Positions 1-41,472 of a stretch of 60,782 nucleotides of DNA are shown piece by piece (positions within the stretch are counted from its first letter, which is position 1; each line of letters begins with the position of its first letter). Source of the DNA: Cyanophyceae cyanobacterium (lineage in GTDB: Bacteria > Cyanobacteriota > Cyanobacteriia > Cyanobacteriales > JBHJGN01); the NCBI GenBank assembly GCA_050331735.1, contig JBHJGN010000056.1, positions 1 through 60,782 of the forward strand, read 5' to 3'. Below the pieces are notes generated by a model that was given only the letters and a program-made list of their open reading frames with translations, ran no database searches and had not been told where the DNA came from. The translations under genes and the position numbers were made by a program.

Positions 1-885
1 GTATAGGGCAGCCAGATTATTAAGACTGAGGGCAATATCAGGATGGTCGCCTTCAAAGAGCCGCTGCCGCATGGCTAGAGCTTCGGTGAGCAGAGGTTGA
101 GCTTGACTGTACTGGCTTTGGGATTGGTACAAAGAGGCTAGGTTATTGAGACTGAGGGCAACATCGGCATGGTCGCCCTCATAGAGTCGTCGCCGCATGG
201 CCAAGGCTTCAGTATACAGCGGTTCGGCTTCGCCGGATCTGCCCTGAGATTGATATAGAAAGGCGAGAGTGTTGAGACTAGTGGCAATCTCCGGGCGATC
301 ACCTGACTGGATGGTTTTTCTCAGCGTTAATAGCTGCTCAGCCAGAGCGATCGCTTCTGGGTAGTTTCCCTGAGCGGAAAGTTCCGCTATCTGTTGAGAG
401 AGCTTCCCGGCTTCTGCTAAGGGGGCCTCCTCTGATGAGGCGGCTTGCCAACTGAGAGTATAGCGACCCGTCGCTGCGGCGGCCTGAGAACTAGCCACCA
501 AGGTATAGGTTCCCTCCTTGAGCAAGGTGGTCACAATGCGAGCCTGATTGGTGGCTCCGCCATCACCCGCTTCAGCAATTTTGTGGCCCTCTGGATCGAG
601 CACAACGAGGTAAGGAGCAAACTCATGACTCGTCAGTTTAATTGTCACTTGTTGCTCTGCTTGACCCTCTAGAACGTGAACTTGGTAGTGGCGGCCATCG
701 TTCAGCGTGTCGCCGTCGCTGGCGAGTTGGCCCTCGACAGAGCCAGGTTGAAAGCTGGCTGAGGCGGCTGACTGTGACGTTCTAGGGGGAATCTCACCTG
801 CTAGCGTCGGCGTTATCAACGCAAGCGCGATCGCCCCACAGCCTCCCCACAAAGTTGTTTTCCACCCCTTCACAAATCTCAGCAT
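1..885 (-). CDS. Secreted PPC + tetratricopeptide-repeat protein (probably TPR-CHAT), runs off the left window edge
   Basis: Not in the ORF track. Hand translation from ATG at 885: MLRFVKGWKTTLWGGCGAIALALITPTLA (signal-like)...DGRHYQVHVLEGQAEQQVTIKLTS (PPC)...GRYTLSW...IATSLNTLAFLYQSQG...HADVALSLNNLASLYQ...HPDIALSLNNLAALY. Open to base 1; colinear with 6521..10390. Confidence 0.9.
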   Translation of the reverse strand, partial: MLRFVKGWKTTLWGGCGAIALALITPTLAGEIPPRTSQSAASASFQPGSVEGQLASDGDTLNDGRHYQVHVLEGQAEQQVTIKLTSHEFAPYLVVLDPEGHKIAEAGDGGATNQARIVTTLLKEGTYTLVASSQAAAATGRYTLSWQAASSEEAPLAEAGKLSQQIAELSAQGNYPEAIALAEQLLTLRKTIQSGDRPEIATSLNTLAFLYQSQGRSGEAEPLYTEALAMRRRLYEGDHADVALSLNNLASLYQSQSQYSQAQPLLTEALAMRQRLFEGDHPDIALSLNNLAALY

Positions 886-1045
886 GTCCTTTCTGACCTT
901 TTTTCCAACAGTAAATTTACAATTAATCTCTAAGCGAAACTGCTAACAACGTCATTAAATGAGTCTGAAGCTAGCAGGCGATCGCCCTTTTGTCCTCGAA
1001 ATCTTTTGCCCTTAAAATGGGTGTGTCCTAAACCTTGCTTTGGTT

Positions 1046-1834
1046 ATGAGTTGGCTTGCTTCTGCGCCATTGTTAGCGGGAGTTCTCACCTCCCTCTCGT
1101 CTAGCCTATTCCCTTTATCTCAATCGTGGCCACTGTTGCCTACACCGAAGTCAGAAACTTACATCAGCGTTGAATTTCCCTCGCTTCCAGACGAAGAGGC
1201 CGCGGAAAACACGGCAGGAGGCGGCAGGCGCGGTGACTGTACCGGAGACCGGGTTCCGCTCACCGTGTTGATGCCCCCAGACGGGGTTGTGACCACCCTA
1301 GCGTCTAATCCAACAATTTACTGGTTCATCCCGGAATCGACGGCGACCACCGCAGAATTTATCATCGTTGATGCCGAAGGCAATGACGTTTACACCAACA
1401 CCATTGAGCCTCCCGCCTCATCCGGCTTGGTCAAGCTTCAGCTACCAGAGTCAGTGGCTTTAAACTATGGGGAAAGCTACGAGTGGCAGCTCACCCTATT
1501 TTGCTCAACTCAAACGGCTGAGCGTGAATTAATTACCGGCAGTGAATCGATTACTGGTAAGTTACAGCGGATTCAGCTCACGGAGGAACAGCAGGCGGAA
1601 CTAGCGGCGATCGCCAACCAGTCGGAATCCGCTCCTCAACTGATTGCAGCCGCCGAACGCTACGCAGAGTATGGGCTGTGGCAAGAAGCGCTTACCACCC
1701 TGGAGCAATTACGCCAGTCCGACCCCGATCTCGGGATGCAGGAATGGACTGAATTGCTCAACTCAGTCGGGATTGAAGCCCCAGAAATTGTGGAAGCGAC
1801 TGTAGTTGGCGCTGTCGAACCAGGAACTCCTTAA
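1046..1834 (+). CDS. DUF928 family protein, exported
   Basis: Hydrophobic N-terminus, AGGGRRGDC motif, TTLASNPTIYWFIP, YEWQL, YAEYGLWQEALTTL, WTELLNSVG. ATG 1046 preferred over TTG 1040. Confidence 0.85.
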   Translation: MSWLASAPLLAGVLTSLSSSLFPLSQSWPLLPTPKSETYISVEFPSLPDEEAAENTAGGGRRGDCTGDRVPLTVLMPPDGVVTTLASNPTIYWFIPESTATTAEFIIVDAEGNDVYTNTIEPPASSGLVKLQLPESVALNYGESYEWQLTLFCSTQTAERELITGSESITGKLQRIQLTEEQQAELAAIANQSESAPQLIAAAERYAEYGLWQEALTTLEQLRQSDPDLGMQEWTELLNSVGIEAPEIVEATVVGAVEPGTP

Positions 1835-1842
1835 AGCGAGCT

Positions 1843-4086
1843 ATGTCACCGAAACTGAAGCAGTTCCTTTGGCAATGGCGTAGCGTTCGGTTCGCTGTCC
1901 CTCTAGCCGGGATTGTGATGGTGGTGCGGTTGGCTGGATGGTTGCAGAATTCGGAGTTAGCCGTCTTCGACCTCTACAAACGCTGGCGTCCGAGTGACCC
2001 CACCGATAGCCGCATTGCCATCGTGGGAATCGACGAAGACGATTTTCGTCATCTCAACCAGGGCGTGATTTCTGATCGCGTTTTGGCTCAGCTCATCGAA
2101 AAACTCAAGGCGATGGAGCCCCGGGCCATAGGGCTGGATATCTATCGAGATCTACCCGTCGAACCCGGTCATCAAGAGTTAATCCGAGTTTACGAATCGA
2201 CTCCAAACCTCATCGGCATCCAAAAACTCGTTGGAGACCCCAGAACAGAAGCCGTGGCTCCACCGCCGCAGCTCAAAGCCAGCGGGCAGGTGGGCGCGAA
2301 CGATATGAAGTTCGACCGAGACAACGTGGTGCGGCGGGGGTACTTAAGAATTGGCAGCAAGGACGAAAGCCTAGAAAGCTTTGCTCTTTACCTAGCGGCG
2401 GCGTACTTAGAAGCAGAGGGGATTGCCCCCCAGGTTCCCGCCGGAACGACGATTTTTCAGTTTGGAGACAGCCTGTTTCCGCGCTTTGCTAGGAATGACG
2501 GTAGCTATGTGAGAACAGACGATAAGAGTTATCAAACGCTGCTCAACTACCGAGGTCCGGCGGGCCATTTTCCCACCGCCTCTTTGATCGATATCTTGCA
2601 GGGGCGGGTCGCGCCAGAGTGGGGACGCGATCGCCTGATTCTAATCGGCTACGTTGGCGAAAGTTTTCAAGATCTCCACGCCACTCCTCATACGACGAAT
2701 CCTTCGGAACGCATGGCGGGGGTAGAAATCCACGCTCACCTCGCCAGTCAAATTATCAGCCAGGTTCTCGACGGTCGTTCTCCTATCAACACCCTTTCAG
2801 AACCGCTGGAGTATCTTTGGATCTTCTCCTGGCTAGGCGTTGGCCTGGGTATTGTGTGGGCTGCCCGACCCCTTAAGCCTAAATTCTTGCTGTGGCTGCT
2901 GGTGGTGGGAGCCGGAACCCTGCTAGCAGCGGGGGGAGCGATCGCGATGACCTCCGTTGCTTTCCTAGAGAGTTGGTGGCTGCCTGTCGTCCCGCCTCTC
3001 CTGGTGCTGGTTGGTTCTCCGGTAGCGATGATGATGAACGAATCCTACCGCGCCATCCGCATTCGCCACACCTTCGGACGCTACCTTAGTGATGAAATTG
3101 TGGCGACTCTGCTGGAACACCCCGAAGGATTAAGGCTGGGGGGAGAGAAACGGAAAATTACGCTCCTCGTCTCCGATTTACGGGGATTTACCACTATCTC
3201 CGAAAGCCTTTCCCCGGATGCCGTTGTCAAAATCCTCAACTTTTACCTGGAGCAGATGGCGAACGTGATTACTGAGTACCAGGGAACCATCGACGAATTT
3301 ATGGGAGACGGTATTTTAGTGCTGTTTGGCGCTCCTGTCTCGCGCCAGGATGATGCCGAACGGGCGGTAGCGGCGGCGATCGCCATGCAGCTTGCGATGG
3401 AATCGGTCAATACTCAAATGCAGCAGTGGGGCTTTCCCGAGCTAGCAATGGGCATCGGCATCAATACCGGAGAAGTAGTGGTCGGCAATTTGGGGTCAGA
3501 AAAACGCACCAAGTATGGAGTTGTCGGTCATGAAGTCAACTTGACGTATCGGATCGAATCCTACACGGTGGGCGGGCAAATTTTGATTGCAGAAACCGCC
3601 CTTCAAGCCGCCGGAAACTCCGTTCAGGTTGGTGACTCCCGGCAGGTGTCCCCCAAAGGCGTGAAAGAGCCGCTCACCGTTTATGAAGTCAGGGGCATCG
3701 AGGGCAAGGACTCTCTCTGTTTACCCCAAGAAAATGAACTGTTTGTTTCCTTGCCTATCCCCATCGCGATTCAATACGTTCGCCTCCAGGGAAAAGATCT
3801 GGGTCACCAAGAGGAGTCAGGCAGCATCGTCCGGCTATCCTTGAAGGGAGTAGAAATTTGCGGTGATCGCTCAGAACAAACTCGGCTCTCCTCTCTAGAT
3901 AATCTCAGACTGCGCCTGCACCAGTCCGGGGAAGAAAATTATTTCTATGCCAAGGTGTTACAGGTTGAGCAAGCTTCCCAGCGGTTTCAGGCGCGGTTAA
4001 CCACGGTTCCGGCTGAAATTAAAGCTAAATTGGATGCTCTATACTACAAGCAACGGCCAAGCGGCTTGGGGAAAGAAACATCGTGA
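1843..4086 (+). CDS. CHASE2-domain membrane class III nucleotidyl cyclase (Cya2-like, probably guanylyl cyclase)
   Basis: CHASE2 (IAIVGIDE, AIGLDIYRD, MAGVEIHA), 3 TM helices, cyclase motifs SDLRGFT, DEFMGDG, GIGINTG, KYGVVGHEVNLTYRIES. Confidence 0.9.
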   Translation: MSPKLKQFLWQWRSVRFAVPLAGIVMVVRLAGWLQNSELAVFDLYKRWRPSDPTDSRIAIVGIDEDDFRHLNQGVISDRVLAQLIEKLKAMEPRAIGLDIYRDLPVEPGHQELIRVYESTPNLIGIQKLVGDPRTEAVAPPPQLKASGQVGANDMKFDRDNVVRRGYLRIGSKDESLESFALYLAAAYLEAEGIAPQVPAGTTIFQFGDSLFPRFARNDGSYVRTDDKSYQTLLNYRGPAGHFPTASLIDILQGRVAPEWGRDRLILIGYVGESFQDLHATPHTTNPSERMAGVEIHAHLASQIISQVLDGRSPINTLSEPLEYLWIFSWLGVGLGIVWAARPLKPKFLLWLLVVGAGTLLAAGGAIAMTSVAFLESWWLPVVPPLLVLVGSPVAMMMNESYRAIRIRHTFGRYLSDEIVATLLEHPEGLRLGGEKRKITLLVSDLRGFTTISESLSPDAVVKILNFYLEQMANVITEYQGTIDEFMGDGILVLFGAPVSRQDDAERAVAAAIAMQLAMESVNTQMQQWGFPELAMGIGINTGEVVVGNLGSEKRTKYGVVGHEVNLTYRIESYTVGGQILIAETALQAAGNSVQVGDSRQVSPKGVKEPLTVYEVRGIEGKDSLCLPQENELFVSLPIPIAIQYVRLQGKDLGHQEESGSIVRLSLKGVEICGDRSEQTRLSSLDNLRLRLHQSGEENYFYAKVLQVEQASQRFQARLTTVPAEIKAKLDALYYKQRPSGLGKETS

Positions 4087-4874
4087 CTCAATTACTCTTT
4101 CTCGGTTCTGGTTCTGCCTTTACTGTGGGAGCCGATAATTTCCAGTCCAATTTGTTGCTAACCAGCGCTCGGGGCAATCGTCTGCTGATTGACTGCGGCT
4201 CGGATATTCGTTTCTCGCTGCACTCCCAGGGCTACTCCTACCTAGATATTACCGACATCTATATTAGTCATCTGCACGCCGACCATATTGGCGGTTTGGA
4301 GTACATCGGCTTTAGTACCAAGTTCGATCCGCGCTGCCCAAAACCGAATCTGTATCTGAGTAAAGAGCTAGAGAGCGAACTGTGGGAACGGAGTTTAGCG
4401 GGGGGCATGCGCTCTGTTCAAGGAGATCTCGTCAGCTTAGATTTTTTCTTCAACGTTTGTCCGGTAGAAGCGACACGCTCTTTTGAGTGGGAGGACATTC
4501 AGTTTAATTTGGTTAAAGTTGTGCATGTAGACAACGGATATTTCGTGGTTCCCAGCTACGGTTTAGGCTTTGAGGTCAACAGAATGCAGGTCTTTCTAAC
4601 AACGGATACTCAACTGCATCGGTGCCTTGAGGATTATGCTCGCGCCGACCTGATCTTTCAAGATTGTGAAATTTCCTTCTCTCCTTCGGGAGTGCATTCC
4701 CACTATCAAGAACTCGTGCAGCTCCCCCTAGAGATCAAAAGCAAGATGTGGCTGTATGGCTATCAGCCGGGAGAACTTCCTCACGCCACTCAGGATGGTT
4801 TTAAAGGGTTCGTCAAACGAGGGCAGCTCTTCGATTTTGACCGTTTACCCTTACAATCGAGCTTGAGAGCTTAG
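4083..4874 (+). CDS. MBL-fold metallo-hydrolase, putative cyclic-nucleotide phosphodiesterase
   Basis: FLGSGSAF, LLIDCG, SHLHADH, TTDT, FQDC, VHSHY. GTGA overlap with the cyclase stop suggests translational coupling. Confidence 0.85.
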   Translation: MTQLLFLGSGSAFTVGADNFQSNLLLTSARGNRLLIDCGSDIRFSLHSQGYSYLDITDIYISHLHADHIGGLEYIGFSTKFDPRCPKPNLYLSKELESELWERSLAGGMRSVQGDLVSLDFFFNVCPVEATRSFEWEDIQFNLVKVVHVDNGYFVVPSYGLGFEVNRMQVFLTTDTQLHRCLEDYARADLIFQDCEISFSPSGVHSHYQELVQLPLEIKSKMWLYGYQPGELPHATQDGFKGFVKRGQLFDFDRLPLQSSLRA

Positions 4875-5001
4875 AAGGTAATCTTTTAAGTAAACAGATG
4901 GAATTACAAAGAAACGTCCAAGTCTTTCCTTTACCCAGCAAGCTTAAACGATTGGTGAACTTTTCTCCTGCCACTGAACTAATTGAAGCAGCCAATACGT
5001 G

Positions 5002-6477
5002 ATGAGTTCCTCTTGGTCAGAACCGTTGAGAAATATCTTCTCGTTCTTTCAATCCATTCGCTTTCCGATTGGCGAAGCGGAGCTTTCGCTATTGGCGATC
5101 GCCCAGCTCATTGCCTATCTGGTTGTTGTCTTTGTGCTGGTGCGGCTGCTCAAAAATTTCTTGCAGCAGCGGGTGTTAGTTAAACTCGGCATCGATGGCG
5201 GCAACCGGGCGGCGATCGCCACGATAATTAGCTATGCTGGCGGTGCTTTAATTTACTTTGTGATTTTGCAATCTAGTGGCTTCAATCTGGCTTCCTTGGC
5301 AGTTTTAGCCGGGGGGTTAGGAGTCGGGATCGGTTTTGGTCTGCAAGATCTTACTAAAAATTTTGTCAGCGGTCTGACGCTGCTGATCGAGCGCAACGTT
5401 AAGGTGGGGGATTTTGTCGAAATAGACGATTTGGAGGGATACGTCGAAGAGGTAACCACTCGCTCCACCATTATCCGGACCCGAGACGGCGCTCATATTG
5501 TTGTTCCCAACAGCCAGCTTGTGGAGAATCGGCTCGTCAACTGGACCTACGAAAATCAGACAGGTCGGATCAGCATCGATATTGAGGTCGATGAAGACAG
5601 CGATCCGCTCCTTGTTACTGAAGCGCTGCTCAAATCGGCCTATCAGGAAAAGCATGTACTCTCCGACCCCTCTCCCCAAGTCGTTCTGCGCGGATTTGGA
5701 GACACTTCTTTGATTTTTGCTCTCTGGGTTTGGGTCAATGCCATTGATAAAAAGCCCCTCATTATTAGCAATCTGCATTACTCGATTCGGTACAGCTTAC
5801 GCGCCTATCAGGTGGAGTTGCCCACTCCGCAACGGAATTTTTGGATTAACAATCTCAACGATCTTCGACTTCCGTCTCAGCAAAATGGTCTTGCTGAACG
5901 AGAATCAGCAGAACAATCGGCGCTGCCAACGTCAGCAGTACCGCCTTCAATGCTGCTGATTAGAGATTTGCTCAAACAAGTCCCGTACTTCCAGAGTTTC
6001 AGTGACCTGGAACTAAGAAGAGTGATCGAAAGCGGCTACCATCAGCGCTTGAAAACAGCAGAAATTTTATTTCAGGAGAACGATCCCGGAGATACCTTTT
6101 ACATCGTACTGGCAGGCTCGGTGGAAATTTGGATAGAAAAGCTCCATCGATGCCTCAGTACCCTGGAAGCGGGACAGTTTTTTGGCGAACTAGCCCTCCT
6201 GTTAGGCATCCCCAGAACCGCTACCGTCAAAGCGGCTGAAGAAACAATTTTGTTTGCCATCAATCAAAAGAATTTTCAGAAGATTTTGCAGGAGTCTCCC
6301 GAACTCGAAGAAGTGATTTTCAAAGAGTTGAGTAAGCATCAAGAGGAACTCGCTAAGCGACAGCAGGAGTTAAAGAAACTGGGATGGGACGAAGGAGAGA
6401 GCAATCCGTTAGTTTGGGTGCGGCAAAGACTGAAAAAGATCTTCAATCTCGATTTTGAAGGAAGCGGCAATGTGTGA
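5002..6477 (+). CDS. MscS-family channel with C-terminal cyclic-nucleotide-binding domain
   Basis: GGLGVGIGFGLQDLTKNFVSG, VKVGDFVEI, IVVPNS; CNB domain LFQENDPGDTFYIVLAGSVEI...FFGELALLLGIPRTATV. Confidence 0.92.
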   Translation: MSSSWSEPLRNIFSFFQSIRFPIGEAELSLLAIAQLIAYLVVVFVLVRLLKNFLQQRVLVKLGIDGGNRAAIATIISYAGGALIYFVILQSSGFNLASLAVLAGGLGVGIGFGLQDLTKNFVSGLTLLIERNVKVGDFVEIDDLEGYVEEVTTRSTIIRTRDGAHIVVPNSQLVENRLVNWTYENQTGRISIDIEVDEDSDPLLVTEALLKSAYQEKHVLSDPSPQVVLRGFGDTSLIFALWVWVNAIDKKPLIISNLHYSIRYSLRAYQVELPTPQRNFWINNLNDLRLPSQQNGLAERESAEQSALPTSAVPPSMLLIRDLLKQVPYFQSFSDLELRRVIESGYHQRLKTAEILFQENDPGDTFYIVLAGSVEIWIEKLHRCLSTLEAGQFFGELALLLGIPRTATVKAAEETILFAINQKNFQKILQESPELEEVIFKELSKHQEELAKRQQELKKLGWDEGESNPLVWVRQRLKKIFNLDFEGSGNV

Positions 6478-6520
6478 GAGGAGAGGAACTGACTCTAATG
6501 TTTTGGGTTTTGATAGTTAA

Positions 6521-9500
6521 TTGGGGATGATGCCCGCAATGGTAGCGAGATGGATGTTGGGTACAGCGTTGTGTCTGAGTTTAGGAGCGATCGCTCCTGG
6601 CGCAGAACAGGCGGAGGCAAAGGCAGTATCTTCAGCAGAAGCTAACGTGTCTCCTGCTAATATCGACGGCATTCTGAATAGCAATAGCCAGACGTTCGAT
6701 GACGGTCGCTACTACAGCGCTCACCGATTTGAGGGACAGGCCGGACAGCACGTAACCATAACAGTTACTAGCCAGCAATTCGACCCGTTTTTAGGGTTGT
6801 TCGACGCTCGCGATCAGCTCATTGCCAGCCAGAGCGGTGCTGACCGAGTCAGCCTGACCGTGACTCTACCCGATATCGGTCCCTACACCGTTTTTGTCGT
6901 TGCTTCTCAAGCCGGAGAAACGGGCCGCTACACTCTCAGTTGGCGAGAAGCATCCGCAACAGAACGAGAGTTAGCAGAAGCCTACCAGCTCAACCAACAG
7001 GTATTAGCCCTGCTCGAACAGGGGGAATATGCCCAAGCGATTCCTCTGGCAGAACGGGCCTTGGCAATTCGCGAACGAGTACTGGGAGAGGAACATGCTG
7101 ATGTGGCAACAAGCGTCAACAATTTAGCCTCACTCTATTACGACCAGGGAAACTACGCTAAAGCCGAACCGCTCTTCCGGCGTGCTCTCCGCATTTCTGA
7201 GGAAGCTCTGGGTTCAAATCATCCCGATGTAGCCACTAGCCTTGATAACTTAGCCAGTCTCTATCAGGCTCAGGGCAACTACGCTGAAGCTGAACCGCTG
7301 TCGCAACGCGCCCTGGCGATTCGAGAGAACAATTTCGGCGCTGAGCATCTCGATGTAGCGACGAGTCTGAGTAATTTAGCCAGTCTCTATCAGGCTCAGG
7401 GTAGGTATGCGGAAGCCGAACCGCTTCTACAGCGCTCCCTCGCTATTTCTGAAAAGCTCCTGGAACCAGACCATCCCGACGTGACTAACAAGCTGAGTAA
7501 CCTAGCAACGCTGTACCAGGCTCAGGGGAACTATGCTGAAGCCGAACCGTTATTACAGAGAGTGCTGGCTATTCGAGAGAAAATCTTTGAGCCAACGCAC
7601 CCCGCAGTGGCTAATAGTCTTAACAATTTAGCCGCGCTCTACCACGAGCAGGGCAACTACGCGGAAGCCGCGTCCTTGTTCCAACGCGCCCTGGCGATTC
7701 GAGAACAGGTTTTTGGCTCCGAGCATCCTGACGTGGCCGTTAGCTTGAGTAACTTAGCGACTCTCTATCAAGCTCAGGGCAAGTACGCTGAAGCCGACCC
7801 CCTCTTTCAGCGAGCTTTGGCGATCGCCCAAGAGGTTTTAGGACCAGACCACCCCGACGTGAGCAATAAGCTGAATAATCTAGCTAACCTGTCTCAAGAC
7901 CGGGGGAACTACTCTGAAGCCGAGTCTCTTTATCAACGCGCGCTAGAGATTCGGGAGCAGGCGTTCGGACTAGAGCATCCTGATGTGGCCGTTAGCCTCA
8001 ATAATCTAGCCTTACTGTTCAAAGTCCAGGGCAACTACGCCAAAGCCGAGCAGCTTTATCAACAGGCTCTAAAAGTTTTAGAGCAGGTGCTAGGACCAGA
8101 GCATCCGGATGTGGCGACGAACCTCGATAACCTAGCGGTGCTCTACCAAACCCAGGGGAGCTACAGCAAAGCTCAGCCTTTCTATCAACGGGCGCTGAAG
8201 ATTCGGGAGCAGGCGTTCGGAAACGCCCATCCTGACGTAGCCCTGAGCCTCAATAACCTTGCTGGTCTATCCCAAATTCAGGAGAACTACGCTCGCGCCG
8301 AGACTCTTCATCAACGCGCTTTGAAGATTCGGGAGCAGGTCTTAGGAGCCGAGCATCCCTGGGTGGCAGCGAGTCTGAATAACTTAGCGGATCTGCATCA
8401 AGCGCAGGGAGACTATGTTCGCGCCAAAACGCTTCATCAGCGCGCTCTTGGTATTTTTGAGCAGTCTTTGGGAGCTGAGCATCCTTGGGTGGCAGCGAGT
8501 TTGAATAACTTAGCAGAACTGCACCAAGGGCAAGGGAACTACGCTCGCGCCGAGACTCTTCATCAACGCGCCCTTAATATCTCCGAGCAAACCTTTGGCT
8601 CCGAGCACCCGGATGTCGCCTTGAGCCTCAATAACCTCTCGTCGCTCTACCAAGCTCAAGGTAATTTTAACCGCGCCCTGGAATTTCTGACCCGTGGCAC
8701 TGATATCGAAGAAACGAATCTGGCGCTCAACCTAATAGCAGGCTCAGAAGCTCAGAAACGCGCCTACCTGGCTACTTTTTCTGAGTCCACCGACAGGGCG
8801 GTTTCTCTCCATCTCCAGCAAATACCGGATCACCTGGAGGCCGCACGTTTAGCCTTGACCACTCTGCTCCGGCGTAAAGGACGAGTCCTAGATGTAGTGG
8901 CCAATACGTTGCCCTCTTTGCGTCAGCGTCTGGACCCGGAAGACCAAGCTCTGCTGGATGAACTGGCCGCTATTCGTTCCCAGCTTGCCGCTCTCACGTT
9001 TGAAGGAGCCGGAACTTCTCCCGATCTCTATCGCGAACAGCTCAATACTCTTAAAGCCGAAGCGGAGCGCTTAGAAGCGACCCTCTCCCGCCGCAGCGCC
9101 GCCTTTTCGCAAAACACTCAAGTGGTGACGATCGCCGCTGTCCAGCAGCAGATTCCAGAAGAGGCGGCCTTAGTAGAACTAATCCGCTATGACCCCTTCA
9201 ATGCTAAAGCCGCCACGCCCAGTAAAAAATGGTTACCGCCGCGCTACGCTGCCTACATCCTCTACTCCCAGGGCGATCCCCGGTGGGTAGACTTGGGGGA
9301 AGCAGCCGTCATCGATCGGACCGTCACTGAATTTCGCCGCTCCCTGGCTAATCTTCCCGCCTCACCAGCAGCCAGTCCCGCTCTGATGAAACGCGCAACT
9401 CGTCAGGTGAAGCAGCAGGCTCGTCGCCTCGACGAACAGGTGATGCAGCCCGTGCGCACACTCTTAGGCGATACCCGCACCCTCCTCCTCGCTCCCGATA

Positions 9501-10390
9501 GCCACCTCAATCTGATTCCTTTCGGCGCCCTGGTAGATGAAAATGATGCTTATCTAGTCGAAAACTACACTATTACCTATCTCACCAGCGGACGAGATTT
9601 GCTGAGACTGACAACAACTGCTGAGCCGCAGCAGCCTCCTGTTGTCGTGGCCAATCCTGCCTACGGGGCAGAAACGCTAGTAGTTCGCCCAACTGAGCGC
9701 CGTTCGGCAGATTTAGAGCAGCTCAGTGGCTGCTGCCTAGCTTTGGCAGGTACGGCAGCAGAAGCAGCGGCCATCGTCCCTTTACTACCAGAAGTGACCG
9801 TATTCACGGAAACAGCAGCGACTAAAGAAGCGCTCCAAAAAGTTAACGCGCCGAGTATTTTACACATTGCTTCTCACGGTTTCTTTCTCTCGGCTCAGGA
9901 GGTCAAACCGCAGCCCACCAGAGGTTTTGGGGCAGAGAGTCTTGCGGAACCTCTGGTGACGGGAGAAAATCCCCTACTGCGTTCGGGCTTAGCGCTAGCT
10001 GGATTTAATCCGGCTCAGGGCAAACTGTCAGGAGCGCTGACGGCGCTAGAGGTTTCTGGGCTAGACCTGTGGGGAACGAAGCTAGTGGTACTTTCTGCCT
10101 GCTCCACGGGAGTGGGAGACGTTGTTGATGGCGAGGGAGTCTACGGTCTGCGTCGCGCTTTAGTGATTGCGGGAGCTGAGAGTCAGCTTATTAGCCTGTG
10201 GAACGTAGCGGATCAAGGAACTAAAGAGCTGATGATTGCTTACTACCAGAGGTTACTGGATGGAGCTGGGAGAAGCGAAGCCCTACGGCAAACTCAGCTA
10301 GCATTGCTTGAGAGCGAGCAATACAGCCATCCGTTTTACTGGGCGGCTTTTATTCCTTCGGGAGATTGGACAGACCTAGAATCAAATTAA
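6521..10390 (+). CDS. Secreted PPC + TPR + CHAT (caspase-like) domain protein
   Basis: Signal-like N-terminus (true start may be ATG 6527-6551), PPC domain, 13 HPDVAxSLNNLA-type 42-aa repeats, CHAT dyad ILHIASHG and VVLSACSTG, terminal HPFYWAAF. Confidence 0.93.
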   Translation: MGMMPAMVARWMLGTALCLSLGAIAPGAEQAEAKAVSSAEANVSPANIDGILNSNSQTFDDGRYYSAHRFEGQAGQHVTITVTSQQFDPFLGLFDARDQLIASQSGADRVSLTVTLPDIGPYTVFVVASQAGETGRYTLSWREASATERELAEAYQLNQQVLALLEQGEYAQAIPLAERALAIRERVLGEEHADVATSVNNLASLYYDQGNYAKAEPLFRRALRISEEALGSNHPDVATSLDNLASLYQAQGNYAEAEPLSQRALAIRENNFGAEHLDVATSLSNLASLYQAQGRYAEAEPLLQRSLAISEKLLEPDHPDVTNKLSNLATLYQAQGNYAEAEPLLQRVLAIREKIFEPTHPAVANSLNNLAALYHEQGNYAEAASLFQRALAIREQVFGSEHPDVAVSLSNLATLYQAQGKYAEADPLFQRALAIAQEVLGPDHPDVSNKLNNLANLSQDRGNYSEAESLYQRALEIREQAFGLEHPDVAVSLNNLALLFKVQGNYAKAEQLYQQALKVLEQVLGPEHPDVATNLDNLAVLYQTQGSYSKAQPFYQRALKIREQAFGNAHPDVALSLNNLAGLSQIQENYARAETLHQRALKIREQVLGAEHPWVAASLNNLADLHQAQGDYVRAKTLHQRALGIFEQSLGAEHPWVAASLNNLAELHQGQGNYARAETLHQRALNISEQTFGSEHPDVALSLNNLSSLYQAQGNFNRALEFLTRGTDIEETNLALNLIAGSEAQKRAYLATFSESTDRAVSLHLQQIPDHLEAARLALTTLLRRKGRVLDVVANTLPSLRQRLDPEDQALLDELAAIRSQLAALTFEGAGTSPDLYREQLNTLKAEAERLEATLSRRSAAFSQNTQVVTIAAVQQQIPEEAALVELIRYDPFNAKAATPSKKWLPPRYAAYILYSQGDPRWVDLGEAAVIDRTVTEFRRSLANLPASPAASPALMKRATRQVKQQARRLDEQVMQPVRTLLGDTRTLLLAPDSHLNLIPFGALVDENDAYLVENYTITYLTSGRDLLRLTTTAEPQQPPVVVANPAYGAETLVVRPTERRSADLEQLSGCCLALAGTAAEAAAIVPLLPEVTVFTETAATKEALQKVNAPSILHIASHGFFLSAQEVKPQPTRGFGAESLAEPLVTGENPLLRSGLALAGFNPAQGKLSGALTALEVSGLDLWGTKLVVLSACSTGVGDVVDGEGVYGLRRALVIAGAESQLISLWNVADQGTKELMIAYYQRLLDGAGRSEALRQTQLALLESEQYSHPFYWAAFIPSGDWTDLESN
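7090..8700 (+). repeat. Intragenic tandem array of about 126-nt TPR (kinesin-light-chain type) units
   Basis: Recurring catcc(c/t)ga(c/t)gt... and aataa(c/t)(c/t)tagc motifs at 126-nt spacing. Boundaries approximate. Confidence 0.85.
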
Positions 10391-10907: not shown

Positions 10908-12155
10908 TCAATCGTCCTTCATTAAGGTAAAGTAATCTCCTACCTCGCCGCTAGCATCGACAAAAGTAACGTCTAAATGCTTGCCCTGTACGTCGAGCAC
11001 TAGCGAACCGGGTACGCTCAGCGACGCATACATAGCAGGATGAGGAAACACCGGGTCGGCGAGGGCGGAAGTGCCCGCCACAATATAGACAGTACCGCTA
11101 CCGCTGTCATACGCTCCTGATTCGTCTTGTCTGCCGCTGCCGCCATCCTGCTTCATTGATTCCGTAAATGAGACCGACAAACCGTAATGTCCCTTAAGAA
11201 GATAGGAACGCTCGTAGGAGTGACTGTGACCGGAGAGGACAAGATCGACATTGGCGGCTTCGAGTATGGGCAGCACTTGTTCTCTCATTTCGATGAGCTC
11301 AACTTCCCAGTCAGAATCGTGTGACCCCTTTGTATAGGGAGGATGGTGCCAAAACGCAATCTGCCAGTCTTGAGTCGTTGCCGCTAAATCTTGAGCGAGC
11401 CAGGTGAGCATGGCTCCTGGGGTCGAGCGATCGCTCCCATAGGAATCGAGGCAGATAAAGTGAACGTTGCCGTAATCGAAGGAATAGTACGCTGCCGTTC
11501 CCGAAGGGACTCCACCGGCCTCTCCCTGAGTTGGAAGGGAAAACAGCTCATAGTAGGGACCGCTTTGCTCCTCAGAACTAGCGCTACCGGCATCGTGGTT
11601 GCCGATCGCCGTCCAGAGGACGCTCGTGCGCAAAAGCTGCGGATACATCTCAAATACCCCGCGCTGATACTCCGCTAACGTCCCGGTATCGTAGGCATTA
11701 TCGCCCAACATCAGCCAGAGATCGGTATGGCGATCGCCCGTGAATTGGCGGTAGCCATCGCGGACCTGAGCGGCAATGTCGTTACCTCGTCCGGCATCTC
11801 CTAAAACCAAGACGCGCAGGGGTCGCATGGGGGAGGATTGCGGAATAGGAGCCGTGACAAAATACTGCTCCGGATCGCCTGCTGCTACCTCTGTAGCCGC
11901 TCCGATTGAGTAGTAATAGCGGCGGTTGGACTGAAGTCCGCTGAGGGGCACAAAATGATTGCAGGTGGGAACCGTTTCCGTTGAAGTGACCGTCAGTTGA
12001 CGGTAATCTGTTCCGTATCTCACGCTGCCGCGCACAGGAGCTTGAGTCGCCCACCGAATGATGATGCTTGAATCGGTCCCCACTTGGAGATAAGGTCCGC
12101 GAATAATATGCGTTTTTGGAGAGTTAGTTTTTCGATCGAGAGTGTTGACTATCAT
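10908..12155 (-). CDS. Purple-acid-phosphatase-like metallophosphoesterase (FN3-like + Metallophos)
   Basis: RGPYLQ, GDAG, GDNAY, GNHD, WHHPPY, SGHSHSYER. Confidence 0.9.
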   Translation of the reverse strand: MIVNTLDRKTNSPKTHIIRGPYLQVGTDSSIIIRWATQAPVRGSVRYGTDYRQLTVTSTETVPTCNHFVPLSGLQSNRRYYYSIGAATEVAAGDPEQYFVTAPIPQSSPMRPLRVLVLGDAGRGNDIAAQVRDGYRQFTGDRHTDLWLMLGDNAYDTGTLAEYQRGVFEMYPQLLRTSVLWTAIGNHDAGSASSEEQSGPYYELFSLPTQGEAGGVPSGTAAYYSFDYGNVHFICLDSYGSDRSTPGAMLTWLAQDLAATTQDWQIAFWHHPPYTKGSHDSDWEVELIEMREQVLPILEAANVDLVLSGHSHSYERSYLLKGHYGLSVSFTESMKQDGGSGRQDESGAYDSGSGTVYIVAGTSALADPVFPHPAMYASLSVPGSLVLDVQGKHLDVTFVDASGEVGDYFTLMKDD

Positions 12156-34958: not shown

Positions 34959-36053
34959 ATGTTTCCCGACTTACCCGAAACGATTAGGATTGACACGCCA
35001 GTACTAGTAGGTCTTGTTGGTTTGTTGTTGGGGACAGTCGGCTTTGGTATTTTAGTCCCTAAGCTCCTTCAGTTGTTATTGGTTCGGCTATCAACTCCTC
35101 AAGTTAAAACAATCTACAAATCTATATTTGCTCCTTTTCAGGGTTGGCTCATTCTCATTTTGAGCATGGTGGTTGCCGATCTCTTGCTGTTACTCGCCCC
35201 TGTAGCAGCTTGGCTCAAATACTTGGAAATTTTCCTCGGCTTATCGGTGGCGATCGCTATTAGCTGGCTCGGCGCTCAACTATTCCGCCAGTTTTTTGAC
35301 ATTTACTTGCTAGATGCCGCGCTACAAAGCCGTCGTAAAATCAATAGCGAATTTTTGATAATTGCTAAATTTTTAGCTAATTCTCTTATTATTTTAATTG
35401 TTGTTTTTGTTTTTGCTCAAGCTCATCAAATCAACGTTTTTGGTTTAATTGCTAGTTTGGGAATTGGCGGTTTAGCGGTTGCTTTTGCGGCTCAGAAAAC
35501 TTTAGAACAGCTTCTCGGGGGAATTGTATTATATATTGACCGTCCCTTTGTTGTGGATGATTATATTGGGCTACCGGATGGCACTTTTGGCAGAGTAGAA
35601 TCGATCGGTTTAAGATCGACCAAAATTAGAACGTCTGGAAAGGGAACTGTAGTCATTGTTCCGAATAGCGCTATTACCCAGGTAAACATCGAGAACTTTA
35701 CTGGAGCTAAAAAGGTTATCTCGATTATCTATCTTACCTTTTATCGAGTCATTCCAGAAGAAGAAAAAGCTTTTATTACTCAAGTTATTTTAGAGAGTAC
35801 TAGCGATATTTTCGGCATCGATTCGCGCAGTACGGAAGTAAGCTTTAACAACGTTAATATTGATAGTAAAACAACTCTGACTAAAGCTCAGATAAACTTC
35901 TTTATTCTAGGATCAGGAGAAGTTTCAATGGATTTGCGCCGCCAGCTACTTGATATTGCCAATCAAAATATCACTAAACAGTTAAAGGAATATGGAATCG
36001 CTTTTGATATTGAAGACAAAATGCTAGATGTCGATTCACCTATTACCGTATAA
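34959..36053 (+). CDS. MscS-family mechanosensitive channel
   Basis: LGIGGLAVAFAAQKTL, DRPF, VESIGLRSTKIRT, VPNS. Confidence 0.92.
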   Translation: MFPDLPETIRIDTPVLVGLVGLLLGTVGFGILVPKLLQLLLVRLSTPQVKTIYKSIFAPFQGWLILILSMVVADLLLLLAPVAAWLKYLEIFLGLSVAIAISWLGAQLFRQFFDIYLLDAALQSRRKINSEFLIIAKFLANSLIILIVVFVFAQAHQINVFGLIASLGIGGLAVAFAAQKTLEQLLGGIVLYIDRPFVVDDYIGLPDGTFGRVESIGLRSTKIRTSGKGTVVIVPNSAITQVNIENFTGAKKVISIIYLTFYRVIPEEEKAFITQVILESTSDIFGIDSRSTEVSFNNVNIDSKTTLTKAQINFFILGSGEVSMDLRRQLLDIANQNITKQLKEYGIAFDIEDKMLDVDSPITV

Positions 36054-36056
36054 GTC

Positions 36057-37205
36057 ATGGAAAATGTTAGTAATGTCGTTCAAATATTAAAAGATTTTAT
36101 CAATTTTAATAAAGAAACCCAGAGATACTTAATTGCTCTGGGTTTACGGTTAGGACTATTTATTTTGTTTATTCTCGTCTCTATTATTGTCGGACGCTAC
36201 ACTCCTTCCCTCGTTACGTTATTTGTACGGCGTTTTTTTCCTCAGCAAGTTTCAGAAATTTATATAAATTTAATCGAACCGATAGAAAAACTGTTTAAAG
36301 TAACAGGAACGCTAATTCTGATTGCGATTACGCTGAACATTATTCGCGAATACGAAGGCTTTTACAATTTTCTCGAGTTCTTTGTCGATCTCGCGGTGAT
36401 TGTCAGCGTTGCCTGGCTAATTTCTCGGCTGCTGCGTCAGGCAGTAAGAGTGTATGGCATCGATCTCTTTCGCCGCCTGGGTAGAGAAGTGGATGAATTA
36501 CTGCTGGTGTTCGAGACAATTGCCAACCTGACCATTGGTTTTATAGCCACCATCGTGTTTGCCCAAAGTCGGGACGTTGATTTGGTGGGGTTGCTGGCGG
36601 GTTTAGGAATTGGTGGTTTAGCCATTGCCTTTGCCGCTCAAAAAACCCTAGAACAGATTATCGGGACTATCGTGCTCTATCTAGATCGTCCCTACATTCC
36701 GGGCGAGTATATTCGCGTGAGTCTTAATCCCCATGCTGAGGATGTTTACGCCAGAGTTGAATCGATTGGCTTGCGCTCAACCAAACTGCGCACTGCGGCC
36801 AAAAGCACTTTAGTCATTGTGCCTAATTCGACGATGGCAAACTTGGATGTTGAGAATATTACCAGAGGCAAAAAGGTCATGGTGCTGCTCTACCTCGACT
36901 TTTTTCAAGATTTAGAAGCTCCAGAACAAGCGCTCATCGAGCAGGTGGTTAAAGAAAGTACCGATTCCCTGTTTGGAATCGATCCGGGCAGTACCAGAAT
37001 CGCCCTTCAGCCCCAAGAAGGCAAGCCAGGAACGCGCGCCCGAGTAACGTTTTTTATCCTTGGCTCTAGCGAGAACTCGATTCAGCTTCGTAAGCGGCTG
37101 CTAGAGCTTGCTAACGAGAAAATTTCCAAAAGGCTCAGCGAACGCGGCATTGAATTTGTTATGCAGGAACCCACAGTCTACGTTGAGTCGCCAATCACGA
37201 TTTAA
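36057..37205 (+). CDS. MscS-family mechanosensitive channel (paralog of the upstream gene)
   Basis: LGIGGLAIAFAAQKTL, VESIGLRSTKLRT, VPNS; same C-terminal SPIT end. Confidence 0.92.
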   Translation: MENVSNVVQILKDFINFNKETQRYLIALGLRLGLFILFILVSIIVGRYTPSLVTLFVRRFFPQQVSEIYINLIEPIEKLFKVTGTLILIAITLNIIREYEGFYNFLEFFVDLAVIVSVAWLISRLLRQAVRVYGIDLFRRLGREVDELLLVFETIANLTIGFIATIVFAQSRDVDLVGLLAGLGIGGLAIAFAAQKTLEQIIGTIVLYLDRPYIPGEYIRVSLNPHAEDVYARVESIGLRSTKLRTAAKSTLVIVPNSTMANLDVENITRGKKVMVLLYLDFFQDLEAPEQALIEQVVKESTDSLFGIDPGSTRIALQPQEGKPGTRARVTFFILGSSENSIQLRKRLLELANEKISKRLSERGIEFVMQEPTVYVESPITI

Positions 37206-37228
37206 TCGAAAGCAGCAGCCACGGCTTA

Positions 37229-37246
37229 GTTACAATTCATTACATT
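37229..37246 (+). promoter_or_regulatory. HLR1-like (RpaB) direct repeat upstream of kaiA
   Basis: GTTACAAT-TC-ATTACATT versus consensus (G/T)TTACA(T/A)(T/A)-N2-(G/T)TTACA(T/A)(T/A); one mismatch. Confidence 0.55.
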
Positions 37247-37373
37247 ATCTAGGGGTTGAACGATTAATGTTAACTTTTTAAAAGGGACTTTTTAATTAAA
37301 GAGACCAAATTTTTTGACGGTTAACCTCTCAAAAAAGAGGCAACCTGCTATTGTTGGCTACTCGCTGAAACTT

Positions 37374-38267
37374 TTGTCTTCTCTTCTGTCTGTCACTATT
37401 TTCTCACCGGTGCTTGTTGAGACGATTCAAAAACTACTCAACAAAGAGCGCTATCGGCTGTATTCGGTTCATTCAGTAGATGAGCTCGTTGCCAAGTGTG
37501 CGAACTTCAGCGAAAACATCGATTGCTTAATCGTTTGTCGGCGGGCAGCGATCTTGGCAGTGTTTAACCAGCTTTATGAACAGGGAATTTTACTGCCAGT
37601 TGTCATCATTCAGTCAGATTCAAGCCCGGAAGATGATGGGAAGCCAAACTATCAGGCGGCTACTCCCACTTATTTATACCACAGTAGCGAAGTTCATTTG
37701 GCCGCGACGGAAATTGCGTCGATTGCTGCCGCTCTCGACCGGGCGATCGCTCAATTTTTGCGTCTAGGAACGAGCTGTGCTCTGGACTCTAAGCAGGAGG
37801 TTGAGCCAGCTTCGCCACCGTCTGCTGACCAACCAACGACGCTTCAGCAGCGCTTAGCGCAGAAGCTGAGAGAAAGACTGGGCTATTTGGGTGTGTACTA
37901 TCAACGAAATCCTGAAAAATTTTACTGTAATCTATCTCCGCAAGCCAAACAAGAATTTTTACGAACTCTGCGATCGCAGTATCAAGAGATTATCCTCAAT
38001 TACTTTGTCCAAGACCAACCAACCGAGCCGCTCATCGACCAGTTCGTTAATCAGGCGTTTTTGAGCGATCTTTCGGTTTCGCAGGTTTTAGAAATTCATA
38101 TGGAGTTAATGCAGCAGTTCTCTCAACAGCTTAAGCTCGAAGGGAGAAGTGAGGAAATTCTGCTGGACTATCGACTTACCTTAATTGATGTCATTGCTCA
38201 TTTAGGTGAAATGTACCGCCGTTCCGTTCCCAGAGAATCTCTGCTACAGCTAATTTCTGAAACCTAA
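37374..38267 (+). CDS. kaiA: Circadian clock protein KaiA
   Basis: [56 protein letters not shown]. Start uncertain (TTG 37374 or TTG 37314). Confidence 0.95.
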
Positions 38268-38313
38268 ATGGATGTTGCGAAATGCCATACACGCCAAGCA
38301 GCAACGGAGTCCG

Positions 38314-38619
38314 ATGAATAAAATAAAAAAGACCTATATTCTCAAGCTGTACGTTTCCGGCAATACTCCCAATTCTGTGCGGGCTTTAAAAACCCTGAGA
38401 AATATTTTAGATCAAGAGTTTCAAGGAGTTTATACTCTCAAAGTGATCGACGTGCAGCAAAATCCCCAGCTAGCGGAGGAAGATAAAATTATGGCAACGC
38501 CAACCTTGTCCAAAGTATTACCGCCTCCCGTTCGCAAAATTATTGGCGATCTTTCCGATCGGGAAAGAGTGTTAATTGGTTTAGATCTTCTCCACAAAGA
38601 GCTAGTTGGAGAAGGTTAA
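38314..38619 (+). CDS. kaiB: Circadian clock protein KaiB
   Basis: [42 protein letters not shown] 38314 with GGAG. Confidence 0.96.
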
Positions 38620-38660
38620 AGCCATATTTTTGCCAATCGCTAATAAAGGAGGATGAGCTA

Positions 38661-40226: not shown

Positions 40227-40326
40227 GTAACAGTCCAGATGCTGTCTTAGGACGACTCATTCCAGCGATACACTCGGGATCCCCTTTGCCAGTTCAGAGG
40301 CTAGACGGGCAGAGAATCCTGCTAAC

Positions 40327-40356
40327 TTTTCCCCTTCCCCTTGACCCTTTTCCCTG
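40327..40356. repeat. Pyrimidine-rich short tandem repeat (STRR-like)
   Basis: ttttccccttccccttgaccctttt-type units; the reverse complement resembles 49153-49177. Confidence 0.55.
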
Positions 40357-40392
40357 ACTATACATCTGTAGCTTCACTGTCTAGACTTGGTA

Positions 40393-41472
40393 TTACTGCC
40401 CTGAGTTGGGTAAATAGCGCTCGATGGTGTCTTGCCAGTCCGGTTCATTGAGTTCTTGCAGTACTTGGTGGTTCAGTTGCTCTAGTAATTCACTATTTTC
40501 TGGAAGCGCAAAGGCAAACTGGCGTGTCCTAACGTCGGTTGATTTCACCTGGAGAGTATTTTGTAAAGCGTCCTGATTGAGATACTGAAGCGAAGCAGCG
40601 CTATAAACAAACGCATCAATGTCGCCATCTCTAACAGCCTGAAGACCTTCTAAAGGAGTAGAAAACGACTGAAATTGAATTTGCTTCTGCTGTAAATACT
40701 GGGCGCTGCTAGAGTTGGCGATGCTGCCTACTTGCTGGTTATTTAAGTCTTGTAGCTGAACTTGTTGAACTTGACTCAGCACCGATGAAGTCAGGTAGGC
40801 CGTGAGGCTGGCCGTAATTCCCATCGCCATTAACATCCAGAGAAGGGCCAAGATTTTTCCGGCAACTGTTGTGGGGGCTTTATCCCCATAGCCAACGGTC
40901 GTCATTGTTACCCCTGCCCACCAGAAGCCTGCCCAGATACCGCGGACAGGATGACCATGAAACATTTCTTCGTTTGTTTGTCGTTCAAACAGCCACGCCA
41001 ACACGCCGATGAAGGCCAGGAGAACTGCCAGCCCCAGACAGACTCTTAGAAACTGAGGCGAGACAACGGCTCTGGCAATGGCTAGCAGAGCGCCCTGCTT
41101 CCGTCTCGCAATGCCAAGGGATGACCGGAAGTAGCTTTGGGCAAAATCGATCTGCTGTTCTGCTGAGGCCGTGGCTGTGACGGCGATCGCTACATCAACG
41201 GTGCCATCTTGCAGCCGATTGGTCACGTCCCTAGGCTGAAGTTCACGCCACTCGTAGTCTAAATCTAGTTCCTGCGCCACCTCTCGCCAGAGATGAACGC
41301 CGATTCCATCCCAGTCGTTGCCAGTTTTGATCGCAAACGGCGGGAGATTGCTCACGCCAACAACAAGAGGACCATCGCCGGATTCTTGAGAATTAGGCTG
41401 AGGAGACTGAGCGAGGTTAGGGAGCTGACTAGAAAACAAAAATAGGCAGGTTAATAACGTCCGCAGCATCAT
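40393..41472 (-). CDS. GluR0-like ligand-gated K+ channel (split SBP domain + pore)
   Basis: Signal peptide, VGVSNLPPF SBP lobe, TM1, pore WWAGVTMTTVGYGDKAP, TM2, second SBP lobe. Confidence 0.9.
   Translation of the reverse strand: MMLRTLLTCLFLFSSQLPNLAQSPQPNSQESGDGPLVVGVSNLPPFAIKTGNDWDGIGVHLWREVAQELDLDYEWRELQPRDVTNRLQDGTVDVAIAVTATASAEQQIDFAQSYFRSSLGIARRKQGALLAIARAVVSPQFLRVCLGLAVLLAFIGVLAWLFERQTNEEMFHGHPVRGIWAGFWWAGVTMTTVGYGDKAPTTVAGKILALLWMLMAMGITASLTAYLTSSVLSQVQQVQLQDLNNQQVGSIANSSSAQYLQQKQIQFQSFSTPLEGLQAVRDGDIDAFVYSAASLQYLNQDALQNTLQVKSTDVRTRQFAFALPENSELLEQLNHQVLQELNEPDWQDTIERYLPNSGQ

Follow-up and report, generated by a model that had tools for sequence, protein, structure and literature searches.

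Cya2 of Synechocystis sp. PCC 6803 (sll0646; PDB 2W01), the best-studied bacterial guanylyl cyclase, shares with the cyclase described here an architecture of CHASE2 domain, transmembrane segment, class III cyclase domain and C-terminal tail, as well as the E-G-Y specificity residues. The cya2 gene lies between sll0645 (DUF928) and sll0647 (hydrolase), the same order as in our locus. The Synechocystis locus (L170) ends with no channel gene adjacent, whereas the cassette described here runs on into a bCNG channel gene and holds the only class III cyclase of its genome. The parts of two reviews that treat Cya2 name no input, receptor or target for it (PMC10117731, PMC4284465), and the CHASE2 ligand has been called unknown (PMC10581220).

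The other components also have described counterparts. Known bCNG channels (Caldwell 2010 and Malcolm 2012, cited in PMC13591265) include cyanobacterial MscS-like proteins with a C-terminal CNB domain, as here. The section of this 2026 review that concerns them calls their role in physiology and their structure unknown and names no cognate cyclase, whereas the channel gene of our locus has a cyclase of cGMP type and an eraser as neighbors. Bacterial Apyc1 homologs, in the portions of PMC9117128 and PMC11724313 devoted to them, are chromosomal MBL-fold enzymes with an HxHxDH motif encoded next to a cyclase, as here, and are proposed as housekeeping cNMP regulators; some are weak or inactive (PMC11724313, section 20). 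In the NsrA–CyaD1/D2/CyaK–Clr system of Sinorhizobium meliloti, an envelope signal reaches CHASE2 cyclases and the cyclic nucleotide is read inside the cell, as here, but that system, in the relevant part of PMC13001267, uses cAMP, an outer-membrane barrel as input and a transcription factor as output, without DUF928 or a channel. Pycsar likewise pairs a cyclase of the class III fold with an adjacent CNB-bearing effector, but uses cCMP or cUMP (PMC11724313, in part), whereas our locus has a purine signature, an extracytoplasmic sensor, an eraser and an MscS effector. No paper linking Cya2 to bCNG was found among the passages that our literature search covered.

The locus (Table 1) belongs to a window of 60,782 nt, the whole stretch of DNA analyzed, the remainder of which carries clock and other core genes. 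All six ORFs and the junctions claimed in the preliminary description were found in place. Between the end of the DUF928 gene and the ATG of the cyclase (1843) lie 8 nt, the cyclase and hydrolase genes overlap by GTGA (4083–4086), and gaps of 124 nt and 43 nt separate the hydrolase from the channel and the channel from the earliest TPR-CHAT start. The DUF928, CHASE2, Guanylate_cyc, Apyc1/MBL, MscS, cNMP_binding, TPR_12 and CHAT domains each exceeded their Pfam cut-offs. The PPC label of the two TPR proteins is weak, their matches to PF04151 being under the cut-off (17.8 and 16.1 bits vs 25.9; E 0.006 and 0.022). A promoter and terminator scan of the locus gave counts at chance level.

Table 1. 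Genes of the locus, with positions in the window
Feature	Position	Strand	Remarks
PPC-like/TPR_12-repeat protein, N-terminal part	1..885	-	Flanking, outside the conserved core; gene cut by contig end
DUF928 protein, predicted exported	1040..1834	+	Pfam 1.5e-41
Cya2-type CHASE2 membrane cyclase	1843..4086	+	Pfam CHASE2 and Guanylate_cyc
Apyc1-like metallo-beta-lactamase-fold hydrolase, Sll0647 ortholog	4083..4874	+	Pfam Apyc1/MBL
bCNG channel, MscS and cNMP_binding domains	4999..6477	+	Pfam
PPC-like/TPR_12-array/CHAT protease, predicted exported	6521..10390	+	Pfam TPR_12 and CHAT; earliest start taken

The cyclase domain had Cya2 (PDB 2W01) as its best match (E 2e-78), with 65% identity to the Synechocystis protein in the catalytic domain and 45% overall, and the CHASE2 domain, transmembrane helices and class III catalytic domain were all present. 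The specificity features tested (a Glu-Gly substrate pair with Tyr, two Asp, and Asn/Arg) were taken from PMC4215837 and PMC5995499, the latter of which describes 2W01 and the E488K form of Cya2. The cyclase carries the guanylyl-cyclase residues D445, E485, D489, G559, N566, Y569 and R570. By sequence it is an ortholog of Cya2, and because of this orthology and these residues cGMP is probably the messenger of the locus, which would narrow the cyclic-nucleotide circuit proposed earlier to a single nucleotide; we reject an adenylate-cyclase reading. No further class III cyclase, and no class I cyclase, was found in the genome (99.98% complete); with no class III cyclase outside the cassette, it makes a clean case.

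The hydrolase scored 76.6 bits against Pfam PF23023 (Apyc1; cut-off 50), matched the PDB structures 7T28, 7U2R and 7U2S, and retains the HxHxDH motif, which is intact in 79 of 81 homologs. At 25.9 bits against a cut-off of 400, it does not belong to the NCBIfam equivalog NF041851. The resemblance to Apyc1 homologs makes it a likely cNMP phosphodiesterase. The Synechocystis entry of Fig. 4 in PMC11724313 (WP_010871596.1) was not among the four accessions retrieved for Sll0647.

The channel combines an MscS core with a C-terminal CNB domain containing an intact phosphate-binding cassette. Sequence comparison gave no binding-pocket residue that separates cyclase-linked from unlinked channels, a Thr after the cassette Arg occurring in both alike, and ligand choice is therefore not readable from sequence. 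Linked channels formed no single clade in a quick tree with weak deep nodes. Judging from synteny, the channel would likely respond to cGMP.

The N-terminus of the DUF928 protein is hydrophobic, and the protein is predicted to be exported. Its model (pLDDT 89) shows an Ig-like and a helical fold, and the single residue invariant among aligned DUF928 proteins is an Arg in a flexible, Gly-rich N-terminal arm. The closest structure was MtxA of magnetotactic bacteria (4Z29; Z 10.9, rmsd 3.6 Å, 145 residues over both domains, 13% identity), leading the next match by 1.2 Z. MtxA is likewise an exported two-domain protein, Ig-like plus TPR-like, whose gene precedes that of a CHASE2 cyclase (PMC4439547), but has an extra N-terminal domain absent from DUF928. 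The likeness is structural: a DUF928 profile found nothing under E 0.1 among PDB sequences, the Pfam MtxA family matched 0 of 61 DUF928 members, and an ESM Atlas search gave only leads under 0.9, with one cluster containing 15% MtxA members. Complex prediction for CHASE2 and DUF928 scored 0.51 (best control 0.00). This reaches a mark that 116 of 157 solved pairs attained, as did 2 of 215 mismatched ones; of these, no more than 18 of the solved pairs, but the two mismatched pairs as well, scored 0.60 or under. Runs shared at least 57% of their contacts, and the partner pLDDT was at least 70. The model thus hints weakly at docking of DUF928 on CHASE2; together with synteny and the MtxA precedent, it suggests that DUF928 is a likely periplasmic partner of CHASE2.

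A gene-neighborhood survey, as proposed in the preliminary description, showed that the channel is syntenic with the cyclase in relatives and that the PPC-TPR-CHAT genes are not. Searching 60 relatives gave 47 matches, of which 40 were fetched; these yielded an unbiased, cyclase-anchored set of 37 CHASE2-cyclase loci, in which the neighbors included DUF928 in 30, the hydrolase in 15, bCNG in nine and all four genes in six. Of 75 hydrolase-anchored loci (fetched of 78 matches), 64 had the cyclase immediately upstream, 22 had bCNG immediately downstream and five had another CNB protein downstream. A channel-anchored search gave only 26 distant MscS loci, which were left out. Cyclase and bCNG genes were adjacent in 29 pooled loci from eight families, in three genomes of one family in another order, and here, a total of ten families and two orders, with or without the hydrolase between them. 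This adjacency may be inherited gene order among kin, and the counts are not independent. Two loci, L189 and L191, show a 4-nt overlap of the cyclase gene with the start of the channel gene. All 29 aligned channel-adjacent cyclases have the D-E-D-G-N-Y-R set, and Lys-type CHASE2 cyclases had a hydrolase or channel alongside in 0 of 5 loci. As a control, nine other neighbor proteins of the locus were compared with 95 cyclase loci; eight were unmatched, and the ninth, an amylase, had one close match about 9 kb from the cyclase. DUF928, Cya2-type cyclase, hydrolase and bCNG thus form a real, conserved four-gene signaling cassette of known parts. The slot for the reader is modular. Often nothing occupies it, the channel gene being located elsewhere or lacking, and a CNB/coiled-coil protein takes it in four genomes that belong to one family.

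Starting from the observed gene order, domains and catalytic motifs, the orthology to Cya2 and Sll0647, and an order kept across families, we consider it reasonably probable that the cassette couples DUF928-controlled, Cya2-type cGMP synthesis to Apyc1-like removal and bCNG readout. Exported DUF928 would likely act on CHASE2 to control the cyclase; the membrane cyclase would make cGMP, judging from Cya2 biochemistry; the hydrolase would likely remove it; and bCNG would likely bind it and so alter the flux of solutes or ions through the membrane. Such a conserved order offers a named partner for each of the questions surrounding Cya2 signal and target, bCNG role, CHASE2 ligand and Apyc1 effector. 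Chromosomal Apyc1 enzymes reportedly occur beside cyclases without an obvious effector. The cassette order in distant relatives is a testable lead on the role of messenger and channel, and in Synechocystis, sll0645–sll0647 make the first three genes accessible to genetics.

A considerably less probable reading limits the cGMP unit to DUF928, Cya2 and the hydrolase; bCNG would be adjacent through inherited order or shared regulation and would answer cAMP or tension, with other CNB/GAF proteins reading cGMP. One bCNG is reported to gate by tension (Malcolm 2012, as cited in PMC13591265). The channel is not adjacent in 28 of the 37 cyclase-anchored loci, linked and unlinked channels are alike in the binding pocket, and 24 cNMP-binding matches, as well as one CYTH gene, were counted in this genome. 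The order-wide survey of 350 genomes, in which thresholds differed by protein and the best four or eight candidates per genome were scored, points the same way: among these candidates, 47 of 150 bCNG genomes had no Cya2-like match. Likewise, 81 of 184 cyclase genomes had no bCNG match, and cyclase, hydrolase and channel occurred together in at least 48 of 350 genomes. The link between cyclase and channel across genomes is loose, and "self-contained", as the circuit was first called, overstates the case for a genome with 24 cNMP-binding matches and a channel often apart from the cyclase. Against the restricted unit stand the adjacency kept in ten families and two orders, with or without an intervening hydrolase, the 4-nt overlap, the failure of other neighbors of the locus to be kept in relatives, and the absence from the genome of a class I cyclase, or of a second class III cyclase, that could supply cAMP.

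The flanking genes were said in the preliminary description to be two secreted TPR(-CHAT) proteins completing a six-gene system. The gene at 6521 bears CHAT (Pfam 1.2e-78), with intact His and Cys motifs (residues 1115 and 1191 onward) and a hydrophobic N-terminus that predicts export; the divergent gene, probably a TPR-CHAT paralog, is cut at the contig end. Its CHAT half is most likely at the right-hand end of contig C24, where an open TPR-CHAT ORF (C24:71919-74753) shares 66% identity with the CHAT region of the 6521 gene and has repeats 72% identical to those of the cut gene and 57% to those of the 6521 gene; no exact end overlap between the two contigs was found. The PPC-TPR-CHAT class was beside the cyclase in 0 of 95 CHASE2-cyclase loci, and all 21 matches to it, spread over 14 of the 60 relatives, lay on a different contig from the cyclase or megabases away from it. 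The six-gene unit is therefore rejected as a conserved system, since the PPC-TPR-CHAT genes are not syntenic with the cyclase in relatives; writer, eraser and channel travel with DUF928 in many of them, and this core is what remains of the proposed circuit. In this lineage the two genes, a local duplication, flank the cassette, and they may have a role in it.

Such a role would be that of a trigger: a CHAT protease acting outside the cytoplasm after export, in this case the PPC-TPR-CHAT pair, would process DUF928 or a surface protein and thereby switch the CHASE2 cyclase. We regard this as unlikely. In 17 of 95 loci, some CHAT gene is at gene positions -3 to +4 relative to the cyclase, three separate CHAT lineages, that of the locus included, flank the cassette in different families, and CHAT genes are beside or near six of the seven other DUF928 genes of the genome. 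The intact motifs and hydrophobic N-terminus of the CHAT protein and the invariant Arg in the DUF928 arm would also fit. Against it, the class found here is linked to the cyclase in none of the 95 loci or 21 matches above, 78 of 95 loci have no CHAT gene nearby, and the same class shows tandem expansion in another place, with five of its matches inside 33 kb in G011. A specific form, which we hold equally doubtful, has the protease cut DUF928 at the invariant Arg, the freed Gly/Arg-rich arm switch the receptor guanylyl cyclase via CHASE2, and cGMP open a channel of MscS origin, timed by the Apyc1-like enzyme, a complete bacterial counterpart of an animal peptide-hormone pathway. If true, it would supply the CHASE2 ligand, the first Cya2 output and the physiological trigger of bCNG all at once, in a genome without another class III cyclase.

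Pycsar-like abortive defense, in which an attack would be detected by the cyclase and answered by channel-mediated cell death, is very improbable: a cyclase and a CNB-bearing membrane protein do occur together, and PADLOC PycC and PycTIR profiles matched among the six proteins scanned, but only in the shared, generic cyclase and CNB domains (channel residues 340–456 only; PycC E 1e-23 vs Cya2 E 2e-78), and against it stand the purine signature, the dedicated eraser coupled to the cyclase, the vertical conservation of a cyclase family present in at least 184 of 350 genomes of the order, the housekeeping cGMP set by cya2 in Synechocystis (PMC4284465, in part) and the clock and other core genes in the rest of the window. 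With no pyrimidine cyclase by sequence, and MscS-CNB rather than PycTM or PycTIR as effector, membership in Pycsar is rejected, and the parallel drawn earlier is formal only.

The C-terminal tail of the cyclase is degenerate and PilZ-like by Pfam scores. PilZ, a c-di-GMP receptor, is marked by the motifs RxxxR and D/NxSxxG. In a comparison of 55 cyclase tails, RxxxR was not in the consensus, and 19 gave PilZ matches at E values up to 0.05, the best being 1.2e-5.

Re-reading of the ORFs bore out the six genes as ordered in the preliminary description, with both tight junctions, and Pfam agreed with its domain labels: DUF928 in the first core gene, CHASE2 and class III cyclase domains in one protein, an MBL fold with an above-cut-off Apyc1 score in the hydrolase, MscS and cNMP-binding domains in the channel (the bCNG architecture), and a TPR_12 array with CHAT in the 6521 gene. 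The PPC domain scored under the Pfam cut-off in both flanking genes. The divergent flanking gene is truncated by the contig end, and at the right end of another contig, C24, an open TPR-CHAT frame in matching orientation is likewise cut off. No overlap between the two ends was detected. Because the genome contains no further gene of this CHAT class apart from the C24 frame, and the frame's repeats resemble those of the cut gene more closely (72%) than do those of the 6521 gene (57%), the cut gene and the C24 frame are probably one gene.

Features of the window and what was observed at each
Feature	Position	Strand	Observation
Divergent TPR gene	885-1	-	
DUF928	1040-1834	+	
Cya2-type cyclase	1843-4086	+	
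Cyclase C-terminal tail	3712-4083	+	
MBL hydrolase	4083-4874	+	
bCNG channel	4999-6477	+	
TPR-CHAT (6521 gene)	6521-10390	+	
Metallophosphoesterase, purple-acid-phosphatase type	10908-12155	-	Convergent with the 6521 gene; weak match to SpdA; absent beside the cyclase in relatives
Low-GC segment	18000-22500		GC 0.33-0.38 vs about 0.50; three ORFs without Pfam match at E 1e-8; probably acquired DNA
Ordinary-looking gene run	34959-42859		Tandem MscS pair, then kaiA and kaiC, a ligand-gated channel gene (SBP_bac_3/Ion_trans_2) and an HtrA-type protease

The cyclase catalytic domain matched PDB 2W01 (E 2e-78; next unrelated entry 2e-37). The accessible part of PMC5995499 describes 2W01 as Synechocystis Cya2, a guanylyl cyclase under CHASE2 regulation that E488K converts to an adenylyl cyclase, and that of PMC4215837 describes a Glu-Gly pair and a Tyr favoring GTP turnover in Cya2. 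The window cyclase retains all signature residues (D445, E485, D489, G559, N566, Y569 and R570). It is the sole PF00211 match in this genome (completeness 99.98%), and the only match there to eight cyclase domains of relatives, including Lys-type and divergent ones. The genome has no class I cyclase match and one CYTH gene. This 5.6-Mb cyanobacterium has a single class III nucleotide cyclase (cGMP type), yet 24 cNMP-binding matches, so other cNMP readers exist in it.

Among 55 orthologous Cya2 C-terminal tails, 19 gave Pfam PilZ matches at E ≤0.05 (best 1.2e-5). The PilZ motif RxxxR is missing from the tail consensus, and the extension weakly resembles a degenerate PilZ domain. The tail is called structurally uncharacterised in the accessible part of PMC5995499.

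The closest solved relatives of the hydrolase are the Apyc1 proteins 7T28, 7U2R and 7U2S, and HxHxDH is present in 79/81 homologs. The hydrolase shares 60% identity with Sll0647, whose gene follows sll0645 (DUF928) and the Cya2 gene in Synechocystis (locus L170), so that the DUF928-cyclase-hydrolase order is common to both organisms.

A hydrophobic N-terminal stretch was found in 56/57 DUF928 homologs, and the invariant residue across 61 sequences is one Arg, in a Gly-rich arm. The DUF928 model (pLDDT 89) is an Ig-like sandwich with helical hairpins, and is closest to MtxA (Z 10.9, rmsd 3.6 Å, 145 residues), likewise encoded upstream of a CHASE2 cyclase gene according to the accessible part of PMC4439547. 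The predicted CHASE2-DUF928 complex scored 0.51 (best control 0.00; contact agreement at least 57%; partner pLDDT at least 70), against a mark reached by 116/157 solved and 2/215 mismatched pairs, of which only 18 solved but both mismatched pairs scored ≤0.60. The model thus weakly supports contact.

The first sample comprised 60 relatives drawn from other families of the same order; a Cya2-like match was present in 33 of them (47 matches in total). Forty were fetched, and 37 proved to be CHASE2 cyclases, with DUF928 beside 30, the hydrolase beside 15, bCNG beside 9 and all four genes together at 6; a CHAT gene lay within -3 to +4 genes at 6, and PPC-TPR-CHAT at none. Anchoring on the hydrolase (75 loci fetched out of 78 matches, 3 partial matches excluded), the cyclase precedes it in 64 and bCNG comes next in 22. 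Pooling all anchors gave 95 CHASE2-cyclase loci in 89 genomes, a set biased towards linkage and containing non-independent kin, with DUF928 at 84, hydrolase at 66, bCNG at 29, all four at 19 and CHAT at 17. The Cya2 signature is present at all 29 bCNG-linked loci, which span eight families (89/95 loci aligned); neither hydrolase nor channel lies beside any of the five Lys-type cyclases. As a control, nine other neighbors of this locus were compared with the 95 loci, and eight matched nothing there. Of 24 bCNG loci in other orders (1.5 kb flanks only), three, all in a single family, lack the hydrolase but show the order DUF928-Cya2-bCNG. At two loci (L189, L191) the cyclase and channel genes share 4 nt. 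The hydrolase occurs in only 11 of 300 genomes sampled class-wide.

The anatomy, motifs, orthology and synteny are direct observations; all biochemical steps are inferred. The most likely reading, which we consider reasonably probable, is that an envelope cue would act through DUF928 on CHASE2, the cyclase would produce cGMP, the coupled hydrolase would shorten the pulse, and cGMP would bind the channel and change its flux.

An alternative, which seems unlikely, is that the channel is merely adjacent to a cGMP unit. A survey of 350 genomes from the order placed the hydrolase in 75, bCNG in 150 and a Cya2-like cyclase in 184; 47 of the bCNG genomes gave no Cya2-like match and 81 of the cyclase genomes no bCNG match. 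Linked channels are scattered among unlinked ones in a weakly resolved tree, and share their pocket residues. These gaps and scatter fit an old link, often broken, and also an order inherited among kin without tight function.

A six-gene system triggered by CHAT, as the preliminary description had it, is less likely still: the four core genes do recur together, while PPC-TPR-CHAT lies at 0/95 cyclase loci. The window's CHAT class occurs in 14/60 relatives, and none of its 21 matches, some on short contigs, lies at any of the cyclase loci matched in these genomes; CHAT genes near the cassette in relatives belong to two other lineages. A CHAT protease is therefore a recurrent, non-orthologous and optional neighbor, and the bracket is particular to the window's lineage. 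DUF928, CHASE2 and CHAT are a recurring theme in this genome (8, 8 and 10 genes). The proposed parallel to Pycsar is a formal one, and such a defence is very improbable; PADLOC profiles match shared domains only.

The accessible part of PMC13591265 states the role and structure of bCNG as unknown. Our literature searches found DUF928 with CHASE2 in WD40 neighborhoods only, no cyclase named with bCNG/MscS and cyclic nucleotides in the text accessible, nothing combining CHASE2, mechanosensitive and cyclase, and no naming of sll0647 or sll0645. A conserved tie of Cya2 and its eraser to bCNG was not found in the accessible text searched, which included PMC10117731, PMC4284465, PMC10581220 and PMC13001267 and left subscription journals aside. 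The parts of the cassette are already known.

Several variants were observed in relatives. Another CNB protein follows the hydrolase in 5/75 loci; in four, of family f20 (L131:10362-11150, L132, L137, L139), a small CNB and coiled-coil protein, a candidate alternative cGMP reader, takes the channel's place directly 3' of the hydrolase, and a CHAT gene follows. Three genomes of family f38 (L073, L158, L167) have hydrolase and bCNG without cyclase; in L073 the two genes upstream encode a carbon-nitrogen hydrolase and an enzyme of the agmatine-deiminase type, and apparently similar genes occur in L158 and L167. Two or three tandem DUF928 genes precede a single CHASE2 cyclase in L134, L171, L042, L163, L169, L187 and L047. 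In one relative (G011:C1:1389460-1421407) the window's TPR-CHAT class forms a tandem array, with five matches inside 33 kb.
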